A stretch of 64,000 nt of DNA from an uncultured Gammaproteobacteria bacterium. Its GTDB lineage: Bacteria > Patescibacteriota > Patescibacteriia > Patescibacteriales > GWC2-42-12. The notes under the pieces were generated by a model. The model did not search any database and was not told the origin of the DNA. It worked only from the letters and a program-made list of their open reading frames with translations. Location: NCBI GenBank assembly GCA_964537265.1, contig CAZHZE010000002.1, positions 21,395 to 85,394 of the forward strand, in the 5' to 3' direction. Position numbers and translations under genes: made by a program. Positions 1 through 41,592 of the stretch are shown piece after piece (the stretch's first letter is position 1; every line of letters starts with the position of its first letter).

Positions 1-131
1 TAGAACAATATAAAGGTAACGACGCCGTGGTTGAAAGAGTAAAGAGCCATGCCTATCATAATTATGTAGAAAATAATTTAACCGGAAAAAGGGTTGTAGA
101 AAAGTTAAGAGAGTGGAATATAATTAAATAA
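1..131 (+). CDS. 3' end of an upstream CDS (5'-truncated by window edge), product unknown
   Basis: Frame 3 is open from the window edge to TAA at 129-131 (...EQYKGNDAVVERVKSHAYHNYVENNLTGKRVVEKLREWNIIK*). It is absent from the ORF track because it has no start in the window. Confidence 0.4.
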   Translation, partial: EQYKGNDAVVERVKSHAYHNYVENNLTGKRVVEKLREWNIIK

Positions 132-138
132 AAATTTT

Positions 139-615
139 ATGTCTGTTTTGGCTGTCAACAAGCGAGCAAATTTTGATTATGACATCCAAGAGACTTATGA
201 AGCCGGCTTGGTATTATTAGGCTATGAAGTAAAATCAGTAAAAACCGGCCATGTAAGCCTTAAAGGCAGTTATGTAACTTTTAAGAAAGTTAAAAATAAA
301 AGTTTGCCAGAAGCTTATTTAACTAATGCGCATATTCCTTTATATAAGCACGCCGGTAAGATTGCTAATTATGATCCGACTAGACCTATAAAATTACTTT
401 TAAAAAAGAAAGAAATTTCTTATTTATTGGGGAAAAAAGATGAACAAGGCTTGACATTGGTGCCGATTAAAATATATACTAAGCGTAGTTTTATTAAACT
501 GGAATTCGGTGTTGGCAAAGGCAGAAAAAAATATGATAAACGGGAAGTAATAAAGAAAAGAGAGTTGGATAGAAGCATAAGAACATTAACAAAAAGTAGA
601 GTTAAAAATTTATAA
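139..615 (+). CDS. smpB: SsrA-binding protein SmpB
   Basis: 158-aa ORF. The N-terminus NKRANFDYDI..GLVLLGYEVKS..G is typical of SmpB, and it lies immediately upstream of the tmRNA. Confidence 0.93.
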   Translation: MSVLAVNKRANFDYDIQETYEAGLVLLGYEVKSVKTGHVSLKGSYVTFKKVKNKSLPEAYLTNAHIPLYKHAGKIANYDPTRPIKLLLKKKEISYLLGKKDEQGLTLVPIKIYTKRSFIKLEFGVGKGRKKYDKREVIKKRELDRSIRTLTKSRVKNL

Positions 616-678
616 AGTTATAAAGTTCATAAAGTATTTTTACTTTTAACTTTCAACTTTTTACTTTATAACTAATCT

Positions 679-1065
679 GGGGATGCTAGGCATCGATAAT
701 AAAATTTTCTTAAAAACATTCAGAAGCGAGTTTCAAGCAGTCGCTTTAATCACGCTTGAAAATTATAATAAGTGCCAAAAACTTATTAAGCAAAATGACA
801 TTTTCTTGGAAAATGCCAGCTTTTGCTCCTGTTGCCGCTTAATAGCCGCAACCATCCGCCCGGCTTAGCCTAAGGGTCGGATCACGGGTGTCATATTTTA
901 GGCTCGAACAAGCGGTTAGCTTTGACCGGTTGTTTTAAAAATTCAAAGCTGGTTAATTCCGATTTTGTTCGGTTTCTACGGAATTAATGAGATATTAAAT
1001 CGATCTACTCTGTAAATATGTTTTAAGAAATTTATTAGACAGGGGTTCAATTCCCCTCATCTCCA
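679..1065 (+). ncRNA. ssrA: tmRNA (SsrA), one-piece
   Basis: The 5' GGGGAUG (679-685) pairs with CAUCUCC (1058-1064) plus discriminator A, including the G3:U wobble. T-arm is GGGGUUCAAUUCCCC (1042-1056). An internal tag frame ends ..PAFAPVAA, followed by TAA TAG (840-845). smpB is adjacent. Confidence 0.9.
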
Positions 1066-1070
1066 CATAA

Positions 1071-1156
1071 GCCGCGGTGGCGGAACTGGTAGACGCGTTG
1101 GACTTAAAATCCAATTGCACTAATATGCAGTGAGGGTTCGATTCCCTCCCGCGGCA
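1071..1156 (+). tRNA. tRNA-Leu (anticodon UAA)
   Basis: Acceptor GCCGCGG/CCGCGGC, anticodon loop CTTAAAA, long variable arm, T-loop GGTTCGATTCC. Confidence 0.9.
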
Positions 1157-1168
1157 CAAAATTGTTTT

Positions 1169-1240
1169 GCGGGTATCGTATAATGGTTATTATATTACCT
1201 TGCCAAGGTAGAGATACGGGTTCGATTCCCGTTACCCGCT
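1169..1240 (+). tRNA. tRNA-Gly (anticodon GCC)
   Basis: Acceptor GCGGGTA/TACCCGC, anticodon loop TTGCCAA, T-loop GGTTCGATTCC. Confidence 0.9.
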
Positions 1241-1298
1241 CAGATATTTTACTCTTTTTTAAATTGACTTCCCCTCATTTTTATTATAAAATTTAATT

Positions 1299-1856
1299 AT
1301 GAGAAGAGTTTATCGCAGACCAAAACCTGATTTTGAAGAAAAAAGATTTAGAGTTAATCAACAAATCCGCGTGCCGGTGGTTTTTGTTATTGATGAAAAT
1401 GGCGTAGGCGCAGGCGAGATGTCGACCCAGCAAGCTTTAAGAATGGCCGAACAGGCTGGTTTAGATGTTGTAGAGGTTAACCCTAAAGTTCAACCGCCAG
1501 TAGTTAAAATTATGGATTATGGACAGTTTAAATACAAAAAAGAAAAAGAAGCGCAAAAACAGAAAGTAAAACAGAAAAAAGTGGAAATTAAAGGCATTAG
1601 ATTGTCGGTTAGAATTAGTCAGCATGATTTTGATTTTAGATTGGACCAAGCTAAGAGATTTTTAGAAAGAGGCGATAAATTAAAATTAGAATTGATTTTA
1701 AAAGGCCGTGAAAGACAGCATCCAGAAAAAGCCGAGGAGACTATGAAGAGGTTTTATCAAGCTTTAAAAGCTACGCCTAATTTAAATATGGAAATAGAAC
1801 AGGGCTTGACAAAACAGGGTGGAAGGTTTAATATAACATTGATAAATAAACAATAG
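1299..1856 (+). CDS. infC: translation initiation factor IF-3
   Basis: 185 aa with IF-3 N- and C-domain motifs (VFVIDENG.., GIRLSVRISQHDFDFRL). Canonical infC-rpmI-rplT order. Confidence 0.93.
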   Translation: MRRVYRRPKPDFEEKRFRVNQQIRVPVVFVIDENGVGAGEMSTQQALRMAEQAGLDVVEVNPKVQPPVVKIMDYGQFKYKKEKEAQKQKVKQKKVEIKGIRLSVRISQHDFDFRLDQAKRFLERGDKLKLELILKGRERQHPEKAEETMKRFYQALKATPNLNMEIEQGLTKQGGRFNITLINKQ

Positions 1857-1872
1857 CCAAGAATACGAAAAT

Positions 1873-1895
1873 CAGGTATTTTAGCCTGTTTTTTG
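1873..1895 (+). terminator. weak intrinsic terminator/attenuator after infC
   Basis: CAGGU-AUUUUA-GCCUG followed by UUUUUUG. The stem is only 5 bp. Confidence 0.4.
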
Positions 1896-1902
1896 TTTAA
1901 AA

Positions 1903-2025
1903 GGCCTTGAAAACTTTTTTCAAAAAAGTTTTCAATACTTTCAAAAATTAAAAGGTATCAAACAAAAATTTAATAGTGGGCGAAGTCCTACGGCCATTAA
2001 ATTTTTATTTGATTTTATTATAAAT
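1903..2025 (+). repeat. modular intergenic cassette, copy 1 (infC-rpmI spacer)
   Basis: Contains the A/T palindrome GAAAACTTTTTTCAAAAAAGTTTTC, the AATACTTTCAAAAATTAAAAGGTATCAAAC module, and the hairpin AAATTTAATAGT-GGGC-GAA-GTCC-TACG-GCCATTAAATTT. It ends 21 nt before the rpmI ATG. Confidence 0.85.
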
Positions 2026-2229
2026 ATGCCGAAAATAAAAACTCACAAAGCAACAGCTAAACGCTTTAAAGTAACTAGAAATGAAAAGATTTTAAAAAGA
2101 AAAGCCGGACAAGACCATTTTAATTCTCGTGAATCAGGTAATGTTACCAGAAATAAACGCAGAGACATTGGTATTTCTGAGACTGAAAGAAAAGTAATTA
2201 AACAATTAATGCCATATAATTACGCTTAA
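2026..2229 (+). CDS. rpmI: 50S ribosomal protein L35
   Basis: 67 aa, MPKIKTHKATAKRFKVT... Confidence 0.93.
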   Translation: MPKIKTHKATAKRFKVTRNEKILKRKAGQDHFNSRESGNVTRNKRRDIGISETERKVIKQLMPYNYA

Positions 2230-2339
2230 AAACTTTTTTAAAAAAGTTTTTAATATTTTCAAAAATATAATGTATCAAATAAAATTTAATAGCGAACAAA
2301 GTTCTACGGCCATTAAATTTTATTTGATTATAAATAATT
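2226..2339 (+). repeat. modular intergenic cassette, copy 2 (rpmI-rplT spacer)
   Basis: Same three modules as copy 1. The inner hairpin is GAAC-AAA-GTTC (compensated). The cassette includes the rpmI TAA stop. Confidence 0.85.
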
Positions 2340-2687
2340 ATGCCAAGAGTTAAGAGAGCAAAAATACATCTTAAAAAAAGGAGAAATTTACTTAAAAGAG
2401 CCAAAGGCTATAAATGGGGTAGAAAAAATTTAATGCGCGCCGCTTCAACCGCCGTGGTTAAAGCCGGAGTTCGCGCCTATATCGACCGCCGTTTAAAGAA
2501 ACGCGATAATCGCGCCTTATGGCAGATAAAAATCAGCGCTTTTACAAAAGAGCATGGTTTATCTTATTCAAAATTTATTCATTTGTTAAAAGTTAATAAA
2601 ATTGAAATAGATAGAAAAATTTTAGCTGATTTAGCTGTTAACAATAAAAAAGTTTTATCTAAAATTTTAGATAAAATAAAGAAATAA
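2340..2687 (+). CDS. rplT: 50S ribosomal protein L20
   Basis: 115 aa, MPRVKRAKIHLKKRRNLLKRAKGY... Confidence 0.93.
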   Translation: MPRVKRAKIHLKKRRNLLKRAKGYKWGRKNLMRAASTAVVKAGVRAYIDRRLKKRDNRALWQIKISAFTKEHGLSYSKFIHLLKVNKIEIDRKILADLAVNNKKVLSKILDKIKK

Positions 2688-2699
2688 TAAATTGCTTTC

Positions 2700-2921
2700 A
2701 TGAAAAATTTACAAATAGCACAAATTATTATAGCAGTTTTATTGATGGTAGGGATTCTTTTACAGAATCGTGGCGCCGGTTTATCGGGAGTTTTTGGCGG
2801 TACTGGCAATTTTTACCGAACTAAGAGAGGAATAGAAAAAAAATTATTTATTGCCACTATAATTTTAGGCGTTTTATTTTTTTCGGTCTCTTTAGCCATT
2901 ATTTTATTACATAAAGGCTAA
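2700..2921 (+). CDS. secG: preprotein translocase subunit SecG
   Basis: 73 aa with two TM helices flanking LLQNRGAGLSGVFGG, a SecG-like motif. Confidence 0.8.
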   Translation: MKNLQIAQIIIAVLLMVGILLQNRGAGLSGVFGGTGNFYRTKRGIEKKLFIATIILGVLFFSVSLAIILLHKG

Positions 2922-2995
2922 TTTTTAATGCTCAAGGAGGTTTAATTTATAAATATTTTTGTCAGCTTGTAATATAGCGGGCAGATTTTATCAAA

Positions 2996-4939
2996 GTGAA
3001 CTCATTAAGAGATAAAATAATACAATTTTTTAGTAAAATTAAAAATTTTATTTTTAATTTAAGTTTTTCTTGGCAAATTTTAAAGAATATTTTTAATCGC
3101 GATCACAAACAAACCGAGCTAGATAAAAAACTTGTTTTTTCTTTAGCTAAATCAAGGTGGCCAAGCTTAAAACAATTAAAGTATATAAAAAAATATTTAA
3201 ATCCAGCTGAGCGCATAGTAATAAGTTTTTGCTTGGTTATTATTTTTTTCAGCTCGATTTTTTTGGGTGTTAAATTTTATAAAAATCATTTGCAGATTAT
3301 CCCCGTTAATGGCGGAGATTATATTGAAGGAGTTACCGGCACCATAAAATATGTTAATCCTTTATATTCAAGCGTTAGTGATTTAAATAGCGATTTAGCT
3401 GAGTTAATTTATTCTTCATTATTTAAAAAAAATGGCAAAGATGGGTTAGCTAATGATTTAGCCGAGAGTTATGAAATAAGTAAAGATGGAAAAACCTATA
3501 TAATAAAAATTCGTTCAGACGCAATTTGGTCAGACGGCAGCCAGCTAACCATTGATGATATAATTTTTACTTTTGAAGCTATAAAAGATATCAGATATAA
3601 ATCTCCGTTAAGAGATTCTTTCGCTGGGGTAGAAATTGAAAAAATTGATGATAAGACTATAAAATTTATTTTGTCCGAACCATATGCCGCTTTTTTAAAT
3701 TTGTTAACCTTTGGAATTTTACCACAAAATCTTTGGCAACAAATTGAACCAAATTCGGCTAGTTTAGCCGAACTAAATTTAAAGCCAGTCGGCTCGGGAA
3801 AATATAAATTTAAATCATTGGTTAAAGATAAATCCGGGAATATTAAAACTTATACTTTAGTGCGTAATGAAAATTATTACAGCGATAAGCCTTTTATTGA
3901 CACCATTATTTTTAAGCTCTTTGCTAATTCCCAGGAGGCTATTTTAGCTTTAAATAATAATTTAATAAATGGCGTAAGCTATTTATTAGAACAAGATAAA
4001 AGCCAGGTGGCCTCACAAGATTCTTTAAACTTCTATAATTTAAATTATTCTAAAATTTCAGCAATATTTTTAAATACTAAGTCTAATACGGCTTTGGCTG
4101 ATAAAAAAATTCGTCAAGCCTTAGCTTATGCAATTGATAAACATAGTTTAATTGATGAAGTTTTAGGAGGAAATGCCCGTATTATAGATAGCCCAATTTT
4201 ACCGGATAGTTTTGCTTATTATAAAGATATTAAAAAGTATGATTATAATGTAGCTACTTCCAGCCGCTTATTAAATGAAGCTGGCTGGAAAATAGTTGAG
4301 CTGACTTCCGCAGACCTAGAACAAGCGAATAAGGATTTGTCCTCTAAAGATGAAGCTATTAAAAAACAGGCTGAAGCTAAAATTAAAATGGGCGTTGGCA
4401 AATGGCTTTCAAAAGATAAAAATTATTTAGCCATAACTTTAACTACTGTTGATAATCCAGAATATAGCAAGGTGGCTGAGATAGTCGCTAGATTTTGGAA
4501 AAATATTAATATAAAAACAGAAATTAATTTAGTTGCTCCTAACCAAATTCAAAATAATATTATAAAGTCAAGAAATTTTGACGCTTTGATTTACGGGGAA
4601 ATAACCGGTGCTGACCCAGACCCTTATGTTTTTTGGCATTCTTCACAAATTGGACAATCTGGTTTAAATATAGCTGATTATGGCAATAAAGAAGTTGACA
4701 AGTTGTTAGAAGACGGGCGTTTAAATATAGATATAAAAATTCGTCAAGAAAAATACAAAAAATTTCAAGAAATTATTGTTGATGAAGAGCCAGCTATATT
4801 TTTATACAGCCCAAACTATATTTATGTCCAATCAAAAAAAATTAAAGGTTTTAATGTTCAAAATATTATTTCACCGACTGATCGTCTCAGTAATATCGGC
4901 CAGTGGTATATAAATACCGGTAAAAAACTTATTTGGTAA
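2996..4939 (+). CDS. solute-binding protein, family 5 (OppA/DppA-like), membrane-anchored
   Basis: 647 aa (GTG start in the track). N-terminal TM segment followed by a peptide/nickel SBP-like sequence. No permease or ATPase genes are adjacent. Confidence 0.75.
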   Translation: MNSLRDKIIQFFSKIKNFIFNLSFSWQILKNIFNRDHKQTELDKKLVFSLAKSRWPSLKQLKYIKKYLNPAERIVISFCLVIIFFSSIFLGVKFYKNHLQIIPVNGGDYIEGVTGTIKYVNPLYSSVSDLNSDLAELIYSSLFKKNGKDGLANDLAESYEISKDGKTYIIKIRSDAIWSDGSQLTIDDIIFTFEAIKDIRYKSPLRDSFAGVEIEKIDDKTIKFILSEPYAAFLNLLTFGILPQNLWQQIEPNSASLAELNLKPVGSGKYKFKSLVKDKSGNIKTYTLVRNENYYSDKPFIDTIIFKLFANSQEAILALNNNLINGVSYLLEQDKSQVASQDSLNFYNLNYSKISAIFLNTKSNTALADKKIRQALAYAIDKHSLIDEVLGGNARIIDSPILPDSFAYYKDIKKYDYNVATSSRLLNEAGWKIVELTSADLEQANKDLSSKDEAIKKQAEAKIKMGVGKWLSKDKNYLAITLTTVDNPEYSKVAEIVARFWKNINIKTEINLVAPNQIQNNIIKSRNFDALIYGEITGADPDPYVFWHSSQIGQSGLNIADYGNKEVDKLLEDGRLNIDIKIRQEKYKKFQEIIVDEEPAIFLYSPNYIYVQSKKIKGFNVQNIISPTDRLSNIGQWYINTGKKLIW

Positions 4940-33540: not shown

Positions 33541-34809
33541 ATGAATTTATATGATATAAAAAAATTAAATATTCCGTCATCGCCTGGTAGCTACCAATTT
33601 TATAATAGCAAAGGTGAAATTATTTATATTGGCAAAGCGGCTAATTTAAAAAGCCGCGTTTTATCTTATTGGCAAAAAAGTGCGAATCATACGCCAGCTA
33701 AAAATAAAATGCTTAAGGAAATAAAAAAAATAAAATTAATTAAAACTGATAGTGAAATAGAGGCTTTGCTTTTGGAAGCTAATCTTATAAAAAAATATCA
33801 GCCATATTACAATGTTCTGTTGCGCGATGACAAAAGATTTTTGTATATTAAAATTTCTTTAGCTGACGAAATCCCCGGAGTTTTTTTAACTAGGACCGTT
33901 GATAAATCAGGAAAGTATTTTGGGCCGTTTACTAGCTCGCAGGCAGCCAAAGAAACTATTCGCGCACTTAGAAAAATTTTTCCTTACTGTAATATGAAAA
34001 AAATGCAGAAACGCCCTTGTTTTTATTATCAAGTTGGCCGTTGTTTGGGAGTTTGCGCTAATAAAATTAACCGGCAAGAATATTTAAAATTAGTAATTAA
34101 GCCGCTTATATTACTTCTAGAAGGAAAAAAGAAAAATGTAGTTAAAAATTTAGAAACAAGAATTAAAAAAATAGAAAAAAGTCATTGCGAAAATGAAGAA
34201 TTGATAAAATTAAAGTATGAACTTAAAAACATTAAGTATGTTTTAGAAAATTCCAGAGTATTGAGCGTGGGAGAAAAATATGCCAATGATGTATTGGAAT
34301 TAACAAAAATTTTAAATTTGCCAAAAATTCCTAAAAGAATAGAAGGTTATGACATAGCTAATATTTTTGGTAAAAACGCCGTTGGGTCAATGGTAGTATT
34401 TAGTGATGGTGAAGTTGATAAAAATCAGTATAGAAAATTTAAAATTAAAGTCGGGCAAGGCCAAGCTAATGATGTTGGTATGTTAAAAGAAATTTTAGAA
34501 AGAAGGTTTAATAATGATTGGCTATTGCCGGATTTAATAATTGTCGATGGTGGCAAGGCGCAATTAAATGCGGCTGGGCAAGTTATAAAAAAAAGAGGGT
34601 TAACAATTCCTCTTATTGCTATTTCCAAAGGAGAGGGTTTAAGATCTGCTTTAGCGGCTGATAAATTATTTTTTCCCGGGGAAAAGAAACCCCTGGTATT
34701 GCCTTTAGCTTCGCCAGCTTTACATTTAATTAAACGAGTACGTGATGAAGCGCACAGATTTGCTATTGGTTATCATAAAAAATTAAGAAGTCGTAGTTTT
34801 ATAAAATAA
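33541..34809 (+). CDS. uvrC: excinuclease ABC subunit C (short form, no C-terminal HhH2 region)
   Basis: 422 aa. GIY-YIG (YQFYNSKGEIIYIGKAANLKSRV), Cys-rich region, C-terminal endonuclease domain (IEGYDIAN..DGGKAQL). Confidence 0.88.
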   Translation: MNLYDIKKLNIPSSPGSYQFYNSKGEIIYIGKAANLKSRVLSYWQKSANHTPAKNKMLKEIKKIKLIKTDSEIEALLLEANLIKKYQPYYNVLLRDDKRFLYIKISLADEIPGVFLTRTVDKSGKYFGPFTSSQAAKETIRALRKIFPYCNMKKMQKRPCFYYQVGRCLGVCANKINRQEYLKLVIKPLILLLEGKKKNVVKNLETRIKKIEKSHCENEELIKLKYELKNIKYVLENSRVLSVGEKYANDVLELTKILNLPKIPKRIEGYDIANIFGKNAVGSMVVFSDGEVDKNQYRKFKIKVGQGQANDVGMLKEILERRFNNDWLLPDLIIVDGGKAQLNAAGQVIKKRGLTIPLIAISKGEGLRSALAADKLFFPGEKKPLVLPLASPALHLIKRVRDEAHRFAIGYHKKLRSRSFIK

Positions 34810-34833: not shown

Positions 34834-36657
34834 TTATACTATATTTTCATGAAATTCAGCAATAATTTGGCGCGGTGTAATACCGTGTTTTTTGTTATAT
34901 AACTCTTGAAAATTGCGACGGCGCTTAGTTTCATTGATGGCATAGTGCATGGCTGGCGTAACTTTATCGGCGTACATAATAACTTTACCTTCAAGATGGC
35001 GTGCAGCGCGTCCCATAGTCTGGATTAAAGATGTTTCATTGCGTAAAAAACCGGCCATATCAGCATCTAAAATAGCTACGAGCGAAACTTCAGGCAAGTC
35101 CAAACCTTCGCGCAAAAGATTTATGCCAACTAAAACATCATATTTACCTAAACGTAAATCGCGTAAAATATCTACCCGTTCTAAGGTTTCCACCTCGCTA
35201 TGTAAATATTGGACTCTAATATCTTGCTCTCGCAAAAAAATAGTCAACTCTTCGGCCATGCGTTTTGTTAAAGTTGTAACTAAAGTTCTTTGACCCTTAT
35301 TAGTTCTAATTTTTATTTCTTGTATAAGATTTTTAATTTGATCGCTGCTAGGCCTTACTTCAATTTCTGGGTCTAAAAGTCCAGTCGGTCTGATTAATTG
35401 TTCAACTACTTGGCGCGAATTTTTTATTTCATATTCAGATGGTGTGGCGCTAACATAAATAACTCGATTAATTTTTTTATTAAATTCTTCAAAGTTTAAC
35501 GGTCGGTTATCACGAGCGCTAGGCAAGCGAAAACCAAAATCAATTAAAGTTTGTTTGCGCGATTGGTCGCCGGCGTACATACCGCGAATTTGCGGAATTG
35601 TAGCATGTGATTCGTCAATAAATATTAAAAAATCATTGGCGAAAAAATCAACTAATGTTTCTGGCGGCGAGCCGGGCGCGCGGCCCGAGAAATGTCTGGA
35701 ATAATTTTCTATGCCATTACAATATCCAATTTCTTCGATCATTTCTAAATCATAATTAGTTTTTTTCTCTAATCGGTAAGCTTCAACTTCTTTACCTTGT
35801 TTAAGAAGTTCTTTAAGTCTTATTTTTAATTCTTGGCGGATAGTTTTTAAGCCGCGTTTTTGCTTTTCTTCTGGAGTTATAAAATGTTTGGCCGGTAAAA
35901 TTGTTATTTCTTTTAGCTGGTGGCTGTTTTTAGCTTCAAATTGTTCGGCCCAAAGCGGTTGATTTTGTCCGGGCCGGGTATTATAAATTAGAATTTTTTC
36001 AATTTTTTCTCCAAAAACAGATATTTTTATAACACCTTCACCAGTAGCTAGATGAATATCAACATTTTCTCCTTTAACGCGAAAACTGCCACGTTTAAAT
36101 TCTTTATCATCACGCGTATATTGGATTTTTACCAAATTTCTTAAAAGCTGGTTGCGTTTTATTGTTTGCCCAACCTTAAAATGTTGGCTCATAGCCTCAT
36201 AATCGGCTCTTTCTCCTAAACCGTAAATGCAAGAAACGCTGGCTATAATTAAGACATCTTCACGATTTAGTAAAGATTGAGTGGCGGCATGGCGCAAGCG
36301 ATCAATTTCTTCGTTAATAGTTGCTTCTTTTTCTATATAAGTATCGGTTTGCGGAATATAAGCCTCCGGCTGGTAATAATCGTAATAAGAAACAAAATAA
36401 TGTACAGCGTTATCGGGAAAAAATTTTTTAAATTCTCCGTAGAGCTGGGCGGCTAAAGTTTTGTTATGAGAAATTATTAAAGTTGGTTTTTGAATCTTTT
36501 CTATTATTCCGGCCATAGTAAAAGTTTTTCCTGATCCTGTTACGCCTAATAATGTTTGGTCGCGGTAGTTTTTTTTCAGACCGTTAACAAGTTTAGCGAT
36601 GGCTTCGGGCTGATCACCAGTAGGTTTAAATTTACTTTTGAGCAAAAATTTCGGCAT
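34834..36657 (-). CDS. uvrB: excinuclease ABC subunit B (short form)
   Basis: 607 aa. Walker [15 protein letters not shown] box ([11 protein letters not shown]), helicase C motifs. Ends shortly after ..HGITPRQI. Confidence 0.93.
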
Positions 36658-36709
36658 AGCGATTTAATTAAGGTTTTTAACTAACTAAGTATAGCAAAAA
36701 CTAAATAAC

Positions 36710-36738
36710 TTGACAAGATTGTTTAGTTATGATAAACT
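36710..36738 (+). promoter_or_regulatory. sigma70-type promoter (TTGACA-17-TAAACT)
   Basis: TTGACA at 36710-36715, TAAACT at 36733-36738. Confidence 0.55.
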
Positions 36739-36744
36739 ATAAAA

Positions 36745-36892
36745 TCACTTAAAAAACATATAAGAAAGGCCGATTTAAGCGGGTTAGGCACGACAAGCAT
36801 GGGGATCTTCTTATAAGGCATAACATGGTTTACGAACTGTGTTTCGCCTTGTAGAAATTTTCTTGCCTGCCCGCTCAAGTCGGTCTTTTTTT
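36745..36892 (+). ncRNA. ~145-nt small RNA candidate with a 22-bp closing helix and U-tract
   Basis: GGCCGATTTAAGCGGGTTAGGCA (36768-36790) pairs with TGCCTGCCCGCTCAAGTCGGTC (36864-36885), then T8. No ORF. Lies between the divergently oriented uvrB start and the convergent VanW end. Confidence 0.55.
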
Positions 36893-36920
36893 AAAATGCT
36901 TCCTTTTTAGGAAGCATTTT
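36893..36920 (-). terminator. hairpin terminator after the VanW gene
   Basis: AAAATGCTTCC-TTTTTA-GGAAGCATTTT, abutting the stop codon. Confidence 0.7.
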
Positions 36921-38806
36921 TAATTAGTTATAGTTTCTGGCGTTGAAGTTGCAGTAATATTTGCCGTAGAAGTAGCCGTATCGACTGGCGGCGTAGTTAT
37001 TTTTTCTACGCCTAAAAGACAAACTTCTTGCCAAGGTACATAATGAGAAGAAAATCTTTCTTGTTTAATTTCTCCGTTTGAGTAAGTAACTTTATAATCA
37101 AAGTAGGCATCGGCGCCGTTATGGGCATGCTCGGTACATTTTTTTTCACCAGGTTTTAGATCGGTAGTCTCAATTATTTTAGTTGGCGCTGGTTTTACAA
37201 TATTATAAATTGTCGGTTTTGTATTTTCGACTATTCGTCCGTCTTTAGTGCCCCAGAATTCAAAGGAGATATTGTCTCCAGAAAATTTTTGTTGGATTAA
37301 AATGTAATTAGATGTGTCGTTCATAAAACGAAAATCCGGCCAAGGGTCATAAATTGTAGCATCCGTGCCAGCCGGCTCATAATAAGAGACGCGGTAAGAA
37401 TGATTACGGCGCATGGTTATTGGTAGACCACTGTTAATAGCCGCTCTAAATACTGTTGTGCCAATTTGACATAATCCGCCGCCATATTCCGGTATGGTTT
37501 TTCCTTCTTTTATTACTAGCTCCGGCAGATAGCCGGTAGCTCCGCTTACTTCGCCCAGCACTTTTAACAAAGAAAATTCTTCCCCAGGTTTTATTAGAGT
37601 TCCGTTTACTGCATTAGCGCCAATTTTTATATTATGGCGTCGATTTGTCGGTGAACCGGAAAAGTTTGAAGTGCCTACCCCGACAATTTCTTTAATACCA
37701 AAACTATTTATATCGCCAGCGTTAACTAAAACAGACTGAGTTTCAACTATTAATTCAATTGGTTTGCCGCTATTTATTTCGTTTTCAATTTTTTTAAGGC
37801 TAGCCTCTATATTTAATGCTATGCCGTCTTGGCCATTTTGAAACTCACTAACTTTATTGTTGTTAATTTCAAATTTGGCTTCCATCGGCTCTTTATCTAT
37901 TTGTTTAGAAATATTTTCTTTCAGATAAGCGCCAGCTTTCATTTTATCAAAGCCAATATCAATTTTATCAATTCCCAAATCTTTTAACTTTAAGCCAATA
38001 AGCTCAGCTAATTGTTCTTTATTAATAATCCATTGTTTATCGCCATAAATTAAAGTTAGAGGGGCGGCGTTTAAAAAATTTATAGCCTTACTTTCGATAT
38101 TTAGACAATCTTTGGCTAAAATTTTTGGATATTCGGTTATAGTAGAAAGTTTTATCTCCTGATTATTAAGATAGGATAAATTATTAAATATTTTTTTTAT
38201 AACTTCTTCAACATCAATAATTTTTCCTAATTTTTCTTCGGTTATAGAAAATTTATAAAAACCGGAAGTTTGAGTTTTGCTAACAATTAATTTTGCGTCT
38301 TCGGCTGGCTGAAAAATTTCATTAAAACTACTTTTTAATATTTTTTCAATCTGACTTTGGTTTATAGTAATGGGCAATAATATTTTTTTATTGCCCATTA
38401 ATAATAATAATTTTTTTTCTAAATTTATAAAATAATTATTATTTCTAGCATAATTCAAAGCTTTGTTAGCCGCAGAATCGGTATCAAAATCTATAATGCG
38501 AACAGCTAAATCGGCGTTAATTGAAGTGACCACCGGCATAATAGTTGTTTTTTTGCCTTTATATGAAAGTATTATTCCATTTTGGTTTATTTTATTTATT
38601 TCATTATTTATTTCTTCTCTGGCTTGTTCAATGGTTTTGCCGCCTAAATTTAAATTGCCAATAAAAATATGGGGGTAAATTTTACCTTGATAAAGTTTAT
38701 CAAATATTAATAAGCCGCCGGCGGTTAAAACCAGCAAAATAAAAAAAATGATTGCCGAAATAAGCAACCATCGCAGTTTATACATTTTTTTATTAGTCTC
38801 CAACAT
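36920..38806 (-). CDS. VanW/YoaR-family protein, membrane-anchored
   Basis: 628 aa. N-terminal TM, VanW domain motif GGGLCQIGTTVFRAA..RRNHSY. Confidence 0.88.
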   Translation of the reverse strand: MLETNKKMYKLRWLLISAIIFFILLVLTAGGLLIFDKLYQGKIYPHIFIGNLNLGGKTIEQAREEINNEINKINQNGIILSYKGKKTTIMPVVTSINADLAVRIIDFDTDSAANKALNYARNNNYFINLEKKLLLLMGNKKILLPITINQSQIEKILKSSFNEIFQPAEDAKLIVSKTQTSGFYKFSITEEKLGKIIDVEEVIKKIFNNLSYLNNQEIKLSTITEYPKILAKDCLNIESKAINFLNAAPLTLIYGDKQWIINKEQLAELIGLKLKDLGIDKIDIGFDKMKAGAYLKENISKQIDKEPMEAKFEINNNKVSEFQNGQDGIALNIEASLKKIENEINSGKPIELIVETQSVLVNAGDINSFGIKEIVGVGTSNFSGSPTNRRHNIKIGANAVNGTLIKPGEEFSLLKVLGEVSGATGYLPELVIKEGKTIPEYGGGLCQIGTTVFRAAINSGLPITMRRNHSYRVSYYEPAGTDATIYDPWPDFRFMNDTSNYILIQQKFSGDNISFEFWGTKDGRIVENTKPTIYNIVKPAPTKIIETTDLKPGEKKCTEHAHNGADAYFDYKVTYSNGEIKQERFSSHYVPWQEVCLLGVEKITTPPVDTATSTANITATSTPETITN

Positions 38807-38832
38807 CTTCAGGCGGTTAATAATAAAGATAT

Positions 38833-39048
38833 TTAAGAATTTTTAATAATTTCATTAATAATATCTTTGGCTGTTTGCTTGTCTTTTTTTTCTTGTTCAG
38901 CTTCTTCTATAATATTAAAGCTTAAGGCCGAACCCTCATGAATACTATCAGGCAATTTTTTTTTCGGCCAAACAATAGTCGAACCGTCATTTAATACTAA
39001 AACAGCTTTATCTCCTTCAATCCGATCAACAGTTAATTTAATTAACAT
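38833..39048 (-). CDS. DUF3006-like small protein
   Basis: 71 aa, TVDRIEGDKAVLVLNDGS.. Confidence 0.7.
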   Translation of the reverse strand: MLIKLTVDRIEGDKAVLVLNDGSTIVWPKKKLPDSIHEGSALSFNIIEEAEQEKKDKQTAKDIINEIIKNS

Positions 39049-39051
39049 AAA

Positions 39052-39516
39052 TTATTTTTCTTTTACTTTAATGGAAAATTGCTTAGCGCTTTTTGCTTTA
39101 GGTAAAATTACAGTTAAAACGCCATTATCTAAAGACGCCTCAACTTTTTCTACCTCAACCTCTACCGGTAAAATAATAGAACGAGAAAATCCTCCCCAAT
39201 AACATTCTTTAATTAAGTAATTTTCTTCGGAGATTCTTTCTTGGATTTCTCTTCTGCCTCTGATGGTTAGCATGTCATTATTAATAGAGATATCAATATC
39301 GCCGGGTTTAACTCCGGCTATGGTTGATTTTACGATAATATTCTCCGGGCTTTGAAAAACGTCAATAGAAAGTTGACCCTCGTCATAATCGCCACCCAAC
39401 CATTCGCCGTTTGCTATATTTTCTCCTTCTAGAAGTTGTTCAACAATGTCTTTCTCTTCATTTTTTTTATTTTTTTTATCATCTAAACCGGATAATTTTT
39501 TGAAAAAATTTGCCAT
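39052..39516 (-). CDS. Hsp20/alpha-crystallin small heat-shock protein
   Basis: 154 aa. Alpha-crystallin domain (DVFQSPENIIVKS.., LDNGVLTVILPK). Confidence 0.9.
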   Translation of the reverse strand: MANFFKKLSGLDDKKNKKNEEKDIVEQLLEGENIANGEWLGGDYDEGQLSIDVFQSPENIIVKSTIAGVKPGDIDISINNDMLTIRGRREIQERISEENYLIKECYWGGFSRSIILPVEVEVEKVEASLDNGVLTVILPKAKSAKQFSIKVKEK

Positions 39517-41426: not shown

Positions 41427-41500
41427 TGGACAATACAGGACTCGAACCTGTGGCCTCCACAATGTCAATGTGGCGCTCTAACCAACTGAGCTAATTGTCC
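41427..41500 (-). tRNA. tRNA-Val (anticodon GAC)
   Basis: Reverse complement: GGACAAT..CCACA-TTGACAT-TGTGG..ACAGG-TTCGAGT-CCTGT-ATTGTCC-A. Confidence 0.9.
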
Positions 41501-41518
41501 ATTATATTTATTTTTAGG

Positions 41519-41592
41519 TGCGCGTGGATGGACTTGAACCATCGACCCCCGCCTTATAAGGGCGGTGCTCTAACCAGCTGAGCTACACGCGC
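41519..41592 (-). tRNA. tRNA-Ile (anticodon UAU)
   Basis: Reverse complement: GCGCGTG-TA-GCTC..GAGC-A-CCGCC-CTTATAA-GGCGG-GGGTC-GATGG-TTCAAGT-CCATC-CACGCGC-A. Positions 34-36 are TAT. Confidence 0.85.

Follow-up and report, generated by a model that had tools for sequence, protein, structure and literature searches.

On the plus strand of the 64-kb window analysed here (64,000 nucleotides (nt) of contig CAZHZE010000002.1, positions 21,395 to 85,394), the sequence signals between uvrB and a gene for a VanW protein mark positions 36745-36892 as the gene of a rod-shaped non-coding RNA, hereafter the rod RNA, which forms a transcription unit of its own and is best read as stable and strongly transcribed. 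The rod RNA founds a family that is absent from Rfam and that, so far, comprises homologues in loci labelled Falkowbacteria, Uhrbacteria and Komeilibacteria, as well as copies on phage-like contigs. Judging from the alignments described below, a compact internal-loop module of this RNA is under extreme sequence constraint, and we propose, with moderate confidence, that a conserved protein binds at its invariant loop, the RNA being either a subunit or a decoy of a ribonucleoprotein.

With regard to transcription, the promoter (36710-36738, plus strand) consists of a -35 hexamer, TTGACA (36710-36715), a 17-nt spacer and the -10 hexamer TAAACT (36733-36738), which add up to 10 matches to the 12 consensus positions, and a TG dinucleotide at 36730-36731 makes it an extended -10 promoter (TGaTAAACT, 36730-36738). 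The two hexamers had already been pointed out in an earlier note on this DNA, and they proved to be a family trait: a promoter-like site with at least 9 of 12 matches was found upstream in 104 of 113 homologous loci, with TTGACA perfect in 99 and the TG of the extended -10 in 102. Transcription is predicted to start near 36745, and the primary transcript would comprise approximately 145 nt, with a folded body of approximately 125 nt. A predicted A/U-rich, single-stranded 5' leader (36745-36761), placed by the promoter position and the fold, may be absent from the mature RNA through trimming; the distance from the -10 element to the closing helix differs between homologues. At the other end lies a tract of seven U residues (36886-36892; the earlier note had counted eight), which together with the closing helix of the rod is likely to constitute an intrinsic terminator and the 3' end of the RNA. 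In 79 of 99 homologues, five or more U in a row directly follow the closing helix. Since the RNA has its own promoter and U tract, and since Pfam confirmed that uvrB (34834-36657, minus strand) diverges from it and the VanW/PG_binding_4 gene (36920-38806, minus strand) converges on it, the earlier description of a stand-alone small RNA (sRNA), neither a leader nor a 3' untranslated region, was upheld. GC content is 0.45 in the rod RNA vs 0.24 in the adjacent spacer, and sequence and model searches found a single copy in the window. A predicted uvrB promoter (TTGTCA-17-TATACT, 36716-36688, minus strand) diverges from that of the rod RNA; both have in common a palindromic -35 region, CTTGACAAG (36709-36717), in which the two -35 hexamers overlap back to back and which is also retained in relatives that do not have uvrB as a neighbour.

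The 146 nt at 36750-36895 (plus strand) folded into a single unbranched rod of -62.5 kcal/mol, as compared with -31.3 +/- 3.5 kcal/mol for dinucleotide shuffles of the same stretch (z = -9.0; none of 200 shuffles was as stable) and with only -42.4 kcal/mol for its reverse complement (z = -4.4). Because the plus strand folds far better than the reverse complement, it is the RNA strand and not one half of a symmetric DNA palindrome. Many conserved G.U pairs of the fold would, moreover, become A.C mismatches on the opposite strand, and the orientation of the rod RNA on the strand of the flanking tRNAs in locus L093 and of the 23S-5S genes in L109, L141 and L172 also supports an RNA made from the plus strand.

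In the minimum-free-energy fold, the closing helix pairs 36762-36790 with 36864-36891 and includes one 1-nt bulge, one mismatch and several G.U pairs. Pairing of the ends with these same irregularities had been claimed before for a 22-base-pair (bp) helix; the helix turned out to be slightly longer, and the interior that it encloses (36791-36863) has exactly the 73 nt that had been estimated. The 5' arm (36762-36790) ends in AGGCA (36786-36790) beside a one-sided 10-nt bulge, CGACAAGCAU (36791-36800), which faces no unpaired bases, and the 3' arm (36864-36891) starts with UGCCU (36864-36868). Directly after the bulge, GGGGA (36801-36805) pairs with UUUCU (36859-36863) to form a G.U-rich helix, and beyond it extends the distal stem (36808-36857), whose helices vary in sequence and covary. 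In the family, a covarying middle helix comes before an AGG:CCU helix. The distal stem of the window copy contains this AGG:CCU helix (36816-36818 with 36847-36849), a G.U/G-C step (G36827.U36838 and G36828-C36837) that is invariant in the alignment, and a UACG apical loop (36831-36834), with an internal loop between the AGG:CCU helix and the distal helix that carries the step.

An unbiased set of homologues (n = 10) was assembled by fetching relatives through their VanW protein, with identities from 77% down to 54%, while the RNA sequence itself was left unused. Every VanW-syntenic relative fetched carries the rod RNA, convergent with and just 3' of VanW. Synteny beside uvrB, which the earlier note had suggested checking, is looser, with other genes in the place of uvrB in L087, L090 and L091; as the RNA persists in these loci, it is not a uvrB element. 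Throughout the ten sequences AGGCACGACAAGCAUGGGGAU is identical and the helices change by compensation, with double (compensatory) changes in 12 of the 45 pairs of this seed alignment. A covariance model built from the ten sequences, R1, gave 139 bits to the window copy, which is one of its building sequences and in which all the proposed family features are present, namely the GGCA:UGCC end of the closing helix, the CGACAAGCAU bulge, the GGGG:UUCU wobble helix and the distal hairpin.

Further homologues were retrieved from metagenomes with an exact search for the core 20-mer, a procedure that under-samples the breadth and the true variability of the family, and at least 120 metagenome stretches were found to contain the rod RNA. 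Model R1 aligned 99 sense-strand matches, 97 of them distinct. In this alignment, which was fitted to the covariance model, 92.6% of 4338 cells were paired and 34 of 45 pairs showed compensatory changes (510 cells); none of 500 shuffles reached any of the covariation measures, and when the pairing partners were slid by 1-3 columns, only 35-62% remained paired. Given that covariation far exceeds both the shuffled and the slid controls, we conclude that the rod fold is maintained by selection. The closing helix alone accounts for 22 pairs of the alignment, 18 with compensatory changes and 94% of cells paired; in the family it spans approximately 25 bp, covaries freely and ends in AGGCA:UGCCU. 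Similarly, helices 3 and 4, which make up the distal stem, have compensatory changes in 12 of 14 pairs. The long helix is, therefore, preserved through compensatory changes in the homologous spacers of relatives, where the earlier note had looked for a possible refutation.

The sequence constraint is confined to the module between these helices. Bulge CGACAAGCAU was identical in 10 of 10 VanW-syntenic homologues and was also unchanged in tandem second copies that were found only by the covariance model. In the adjoining GGGGA:UUUCU helix, the successive pairs were G.U in 96, G-C in 93, G.U in 95, G.U in 96 and A-U in 97 of the 97 sequences. Replacement of these wobbles by G-C is thus very rare, which means that sequence constraint acts on both strands; UUUCU was at least 90-97% conserved even though it lies outside the search pattern. 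The step near the apex showed the same behaviour (G.U at columns 67-123 and G-C at columns 68-122, each in 97 of 97), while the apical loop itself is variable and, in some lineages, is enlarged by insertions of 30-75 nt. Body length is sharply peaked at 122-125 nt, with outliers of 83, 92 and 151-199 nt.

These data also bear on the reading that there is no RNA gene at all, and that the element is either a very long bidirectional terminator or a DNA palindrome separating convergent units, or else a gene for a small protein on the minus strand. With an A-rich run before the hairpin and a U run after it, termination could work in both directions; 93 of 103 loci have a convergent gene downstream, and the minus strand holds a 51-amino-acid TTG open reading frame (ORF; 36723-36878). 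We consider this reading scarcely credible, however, because the conserved promoter points into the element, a terminator needs no invariant 20-nt loop, the strand asymmetry in fold energy and G.U pairs is strong, and the element also lies within a tRNA array and in phage operons lacking a convergent gene. The minus-strand ORF is unconserved, being broken by stops or frameshifts in homologues, and the reading frames of the plus strand are broken as well; a small protein was thus rejected, and the earlier statement that the stretch has no ORF holds for the plus strand only. Furthermore, VanW has a separate terminator hairpin of its own (36893-36920, 11 bp, AAAAUGCUUCC-N6-GGAAGCAUUUU), flanked by A and U runs and overlapping the VanW stop codon, whose 15-nt arms were found as an inverted repeat with 93% complementarity. 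This hairpin is likely, by its sequence, to be a bidirectional terminator, at which the convergent VanW mRNA would stop and which would also act as a backup to the terminator of the rod RNA; equivalent hairpins of different sequence are present in the VanW-syntenic relatives.

Concerning the distribution of the family, exact look-up of neighbouring proteins returned the labels Candidatus Uhrbacteria, Komeilibacteria, Falkowbacteria and Parcubacteria group, which indicates that it spans several candidate phyla of the Candidate Phyla Radiation (CPR). In a test limited by synteny, no rod RNA was found within 4 kb of uvrB in loci from Saccharibacteria or other Patescibacteria. The source organism of the window is itself a CPR/Patescibacteria bacterium, the closest VanW proteins being labelled Falkowbacteria or Patescibacteria. 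Its only close relative in the genome collection (L001, CAZGKM010000007.1; UvrB 85% identical) is titled 'uncultured Gammaproteobacteria bacterium', a label that is probably wrong, since gene content and VanW relatives point to a Patescibacteria/Falkowbacteria-like organism.

Each listed metagenome stretch has one exact core match, and this also applies to those taken from contigs of 976, 831 and 376 kb. Tandem double copies were detected in three loci, 8-12 nt apart in L107 (209-464, minus strand) and L123 (8134-8392, plus strand) and approximately 100 nt apart in L174 (8527-8865, minus strand). In L107 and L123, the upstream copy has no U tract, and the downstream copy carries AGACA:UGUCU instead of AGGCA:UGCCU with the bulge unchanged. 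Among the 103 loci with enough DNA downstream, the convergent gene is VanW in 61, where it usually closes an hsp20-DUF3006-vanW block, and DAGK_cat-like in 32, in which case RNase J lies upstream; the remaining 10 loci have another context. In one lineage the rod RNA is linked to rRNA genes, lying downstream of 23S-5S on the same strand at a distance of approximately 450 nt in L109 (1628-2772, minus strand), with VanW still convergent downstream, and of approximately 4.4 kb in L141 (1-5689, plus strand) and L172 (279-8015, plus strand). Taken together, the single copy, the varied gene contexts, the placement in a tRNA array (see below) or behind 23S-5S and the tandem copies speak for a housekeeping-like behaviour. 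Regarding the VanW side, the hsp20-DUF3006-vanW block (with PG_binding_4) stands tail to tail with the rod RNA gene both in the window (36920-39516, minus strand) and in L081-L091, and the convergent order of VanW and RNA is kept even with very divergent RNA variants (L109, L174, L182); this lasting arrangement may reflect a functional link or merely old synteny.

Three types of phage-like contig carry the rod RNA. The first, L093, which by its gene content probably comes from a large phage of CPR bacteria, contains an array of 21 tRNAs (156-3352, minus strand) for most amino acids, including tRNA-Ile(UAU), with small ORFs interspersed, one of which matches phrog_1454. An 83-nt copy of the rod RNA (2435-2517, minus strand), its closing stem shortened to 11 bp, is inserted between tRNA-Ile and tRNA-Gly, on their strand and with spacers of 2-4 nt. 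The second type (L094, L148 and L199) carries a 92-nt form (in L148 within the region 46-686, plus strand) that starts 4 nt after a gene for a class I S-adenosylmethionine (SAM) methyltransferase with a weak 'tRNA methyltransferase' PHROG match; the contig also encodes a RuvC-like resolvase and at least 16 tRNAs, and the apical part of the L094 copy is reduced to approximately 15 nt. The third, L223 from IMG/VR (2499-4638, plus strand), has a divergent copy without U tract directly 5' of an operon of a small ORF, groES and groEL, on a contig that also encodes a small terminase subunit and a ParB-methyltransferase, and this copy keeps the apical step as CCGGC-GAAA-GCUGG. It was the only true homologue at the 16-mer site among the 21 stretches returned by an IMG/VR scan with a 16-mer, the other 20 being chance matches within coding sequence; a model match in L229 (IMG/VR), located away from the 16-mer site and lacking the core, was discarded, and no rod-RNA match was found in GenBank phages. 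The short forms of 83 and 92 nt retain only the core module; as natural deletion experiments, they suggest that the functional centre of the RNA is its internal-loop module.

Two further features of these contigs may be mentioned. The tRNA array of L093 is also headed by a methyltransferase gene; a shared linked methyltransferase in L093 and L148 was rejected, as both are generic class I SAM enzymes with no detectable homology. Chaperone genes are neighbours in phage and host alike, groES-groEL in the case of the L223 copy and the hsp20 operon in that of the host copy, which may be coincidental.

In order to assign the rod RNA to a known family, it was compared with Rfam 15. At gathering thresholds, the whole window yielded tmRNA and seven tRNAs, all away from the rod-RNA locus, and nothing near it. 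At E<=10, the 361-nt region 36600-36960 gave only sub-threshold matches to unrelated sRNAs and leaders (tsr26, Phe_leader and STnc230), all located on the terminator hairpin and none recurring at the rod RNA, and 14 homologous loci searched likewise gave no family that recurs there. The check that had been recommended in the earlier note, thus, returned no known family at either threshold. Its comparison with 6S- or 4.5S-like rods holds as an analogy of shape, but the defining features of both families were looked for and are absent, as set out in what follows.

A divergent, shortened 6S RNA would be a mimic of an open promoter that sequesters the sigma-70 holoenzyme of RNA polymerase and serves, at its bulge, as the template for short product RNAs. 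The rod with its long closing stem, internal unpaired region and distal stem would agree with this, as would the strong stand-alone promoter and the single or tandem gene; furthermore, the GGGGA:UUUCU helix is weak and, once open, would leave approximately 17 nt unpaired over approximately 7 nt, and a decoy of RNA polymerase could benefit a phage. Nevertheless, we regard a 6S identity as unlikely. The 6S and 6S-Flavo models (RF00013/RF01685) had no match at E<=10 on the 361-nt region or the 14 homologous loci. Instead of the 6S architecture, a central bubble with both strands unpaired in an RNA of approximately 150-200 nt, the unpaired region is one-sided (10 over 0), and both the body of 122-125 nt and the functional-looking phage forms of 83 and 92 nt are too short. 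Drastic shortening of either arm, as in the 11-bp closing stem of L093 and the approximately 15-nt apex of L094, misfits a fixed polymerase footprint, and a 20-nt sequence that is invariant across candidate phyla would be atypical for 6S.

That the rod RNA is a remodelled signal recognition particle (SRP) RNA of the 4.5S type, binding Ffh, appears very improbable, despite a rod of approximately 120 nt that comes near the length of 4.5S, a strongly asymmetric loop on the 5' strand, a core conservation comparable with that of SRP domain IV and the stable-RNA gene contexts. The bacterial SRP models RF00169 and RF01854 gave no match, neither at E<=10 on the locus and the 14 homologous loci nor at gathering score. 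A regular-expression scan for SRP domain IV, a motif that had not been seen in the earlier reading either, found nothing in the rod RNA and only coding or 23S chance matches over approximately 1.0 Mb of loci. The conserved module sits mid-rod, with no GNRA tetraloop combined with the symmetric-loop motif (…AGG…GNRA…AGCA…), and the apex, UACG in the window copy, is variable and accepts the 30-75-nt insertions; in addition, covariation holds AGGCA in a helix, which excludes an SRP-like refolding. A canonical SRP RNA was not seen in the window or in approximately 0.8 Mb of rod-RNA-bearing loci, a sample of the neighbourhood of the gene and not of whole genomes; likewise, canonical 6S or RNase P RNA was not seen on the rod-RNA-bearing contigs, which is uninformative as only this neighbourhood was sampled.

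Other identities were rejected as well. 5S rRNA was ruled out, as the rod is unbranched, in contrast to the three-helix junction of 5S (RF00001), and canonical 5S genes (84-89 bits) lie on the same contigs in L109, L172 and L141, and so were tRNA and tmRNA, with no ARAGORN call for the L093 copy despite 21 flanking tRNAs and no Rfam tRNA or tmRNA match at the locus. An RNA of a type III toxin-antitoxin system, in which short tandem repeats immediately precede the gene of an endoribonuclease toxin in the same operon, does not correspond to a single unit of approximately 125 nt (two in three loci) with a convergent downstream gene and no recurrent same-strand partner. Some short likenesses are taken as leads only, namely that of AAGCGGGCCAGGCACGACAAGCAUGGGG to AAGCGGGCCAG and ACCACAAGAAUGUGG of E. 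coli 6S, which would favour the 6S reading, and those to RNase P CR-V (CACGACAGAAC), to 5S (UCCCCAUGC, on the wrong strand), to the S15 G.U/G-C motif and to the CsrA GGA motif.

A trans-acting, base-pairing sRNA is about as unlikely as a 6S RNA. In such a case, the exposed bulge (CGACAAGCAUGGGG) would be a seed for mRNAs or another RNA, for example for a CCCCAUGC start region, which would be compatible with a stand-alone sRNA gene with an intrinsic terminator, with a conserved single-stranded stretch of at least 10 nt and with the CAUG in the seed, through which a target could span the start codon. However, the search for mRNA targets in the 64-kb window produced one 10-nt complementary site, which is the chance expectation, and there was no Watson-Crick run of at least 8 nt against the 16S, 23S and 5S rRNAs of rod-RNA-bearing contigs, where the best runs with G.U allowed were at shuffle level; a role as rRNA guide or antisense was rejected on the same data. 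Seeds are rarely identical over such phylogenetic depth unless the target is invariant, the fixed body length, wobble helix and apical G.U/G-C step would be superfluous in a seed RNA, and placement in a tRNA array or at the tail of an rRNA operon suits a stable RNA better than a regulator. A resemblance of the core to 16S positions ~756-778 (19 of 23 identities with the 16S of L110 itself) was attributed to chance, as 11% of shuffled RNAs align equally well.

Somewhat less likely still is a catalytic or ligand-binding RNA, in which an active site or a pocket would be built from the invariant loop together with the wobble helix. The confinement of extreme conservation to a compact internal-loop module amid covarying helices would be expected of it, and so would the tandem G.U pairs that are never repaired; such pairs are typical of metal-binding or tertiary-contact sites. 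Moreover, we infer that GA-CAA-GC in the bulge could form a mini-hairpin and thereby a three-way junction. On the other hand, there was no match to a ribozyme or riboswitch in Rfam, mostly no same-strand downstream gene follows, so that there would be no expression platform to control, and no repeated-element or satellite context hints at self-cleavage.

A docking site for a protein, in turn, fits best with the invariant loop and wobble helix, the freely covarying handles, the dispensable ends and the minimal copies in phages. We suggest that a conserved cell protein would dock at the asymmetric loop formed by GGCA / CGACAAGCAU / GGGG over UUCU-UGCC, that the remainder of the rod would serve as a length-controlled handle with a second, smaller recognition step (G.U/G-C) near the apex, and that the cut-down phage copies, in keeping the core module, would supply or titrate the partner. 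Several points weigh against this proposal. We infer the protein-binding mechanism from the conservation pattern alone, and a base-pairing seed, a ligand pocket or a catalytic site would account equally well for a single-stranded loop that does not vary. Core invariance among the at least 120 metagenome loci is in part a product of the 20-mer retrieval, the unbiased support for it being only the ten syntenic homologues and three tandem second copies. Finally, no candidate partner gene is consistently adjacent, and the commonest neighbour, VanW (61 of 103 loci), is no obvious RNA-binding protein.

Going further, and more tentatively, the rod RNA is possibly the RNA component of an undescribed ribonucleoprotein or RNA-based regulatory device, one that is specific to a large CPR branch, and phages would have copied the core module of the RNA to hijack or titrate its partner. 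It is unlikely to be dispensable, given the strong promoter, the single copy in the sequence examined and a 20-nt core identical across candidate phyla, and the cut-down copies in at least three phage-like lineages point in the same direction. If the proposal is correct, the rod RNA would take its place beside 6S, SRP, tmRNA and Y RNAs as a new class of housekeeping or regulatory RNA in bacteria, important enough to stay near-invariant in its core within genomes of approximately 1 Mb, and knowing its partner could bring to light a new ribonucleoprotein or a new route by which phages manipulate CPR hosts. A large part of bacterial diversity belongs to the CPR/Patescibacteria, whose genomes are tiny, and, to our knowledge, almost nothing has been known of their non-coding RNAs beyond rRNA, tRNA, tmRNA and introns. 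Full-text searches of the published literature retrieved no description of the rod RNA. A survey of structured-RNA motifs (PMC11109978) makes no mention of Patescibacteria or CPR, and systematic surveys of non-coding RNAs of recent date did not cover the CPR. For annotators, the covariance model offers a new RNA gene call where annotation would otherwise show an empty spacer or a spurious small ORF.

As for the rest of the window, a tmRNA gene (679-1068, plus strand; 129.7 bits) is followed, within 2 nt, by a tRNA gene (1071-1156) and then by a second one (1169-1240), so that 679-1240 forms a compact stable-RNA operon on the plus strand, in a style akin to that of the L093 tRNA array with its rod RNA. 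Two adjacent tRNA genes on the minus strand (41427-41592), with 74.9 bits each in Rfam, are probably a tandem duplicate in view of their identical scores; in the synteny blocks of relatives, a tRNA pair likewise lies just upstream of the hsp20 gene. On the other side of the locus, uvrC (33541-34809, plus strand) and uvrB (34834-36657, minus strand) are convergent with a gap of only 24 nt.

Compared with known systems, the rod RNA, which is predicted to be highly expressed as 6S RNA (ssrS) is, resembles the latter in being a stand-alone rod whose long closing stem and distal stem are separated by an interrupted middle, and in having one or two gene copies per genome. It differs from 6S in its length of approximately 125 nt (83-92 nt in phages) vs the approximately 150-200 nt of known 6S RNAs, in a one-sided 10-nt bulge where 6S has a two-stranded central bubble, in a core that is invariant across candidate phyla, in the dispensability of either arm and in the lack of a covariance-model match. 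With 4.5S SRP RNA (RF00169), which measures 114 nt in E. coli, it has in common a hairpin rod of approximately 115-125 nt with a highly conserved asymmetric internal loop and a housekeeping-like gene behaviour, and both can come from polycistronic stable-RNA transcripts. Its module is mid-rod and not apical, however, with neither GNRA tetraloop nor symmetric-loop motif, its apex is variable and expandable, and no model match was obtained.

Bacterial and phage Y RNAs of the YrlA type are similar in that their paired 5' and 3' ends form a long stem with a conserved bulged helix, in their U-tract end, in the possibility of tandem copies and in phage copies near tRNA arrays; the bulged helix of Y RNAs is the binding site of the Ro protein. 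The rod RNA, by contrast, has no tRNA-like domain, and its helix and bulge are unrelated in sequence to the Ro-binding site; none of approximately 100 loci showed an rsr (Ro) gene beside it, and the Rfam Y-RNA models had no match at the locus or at the 14 homologous loci. The T4 species 1 and 2 RNAs are small stable RNAs of unknown function within a phage tRNA cluster, as is the L093 copy, the ends of which would be made by tRNA-processing enzymes in view of its same-strand position in the array and its spacers of 2-4 nt. The likeness is one of context, and the rod RNA differs in also having a chromosomal host homologue with its own promoter. Lastly, the rod RNA joins orphan structured RNAs such as Bacteroidales-1 and the motifs described in PMC11109978 and PMC8632094 in being GC-rich and intergenic, in its covariation, in having its own promoter and terminator and in having no assigned function; it differs from them in coming from the CPR, which lies outside those surveys, and in possessing truncated phage copies.

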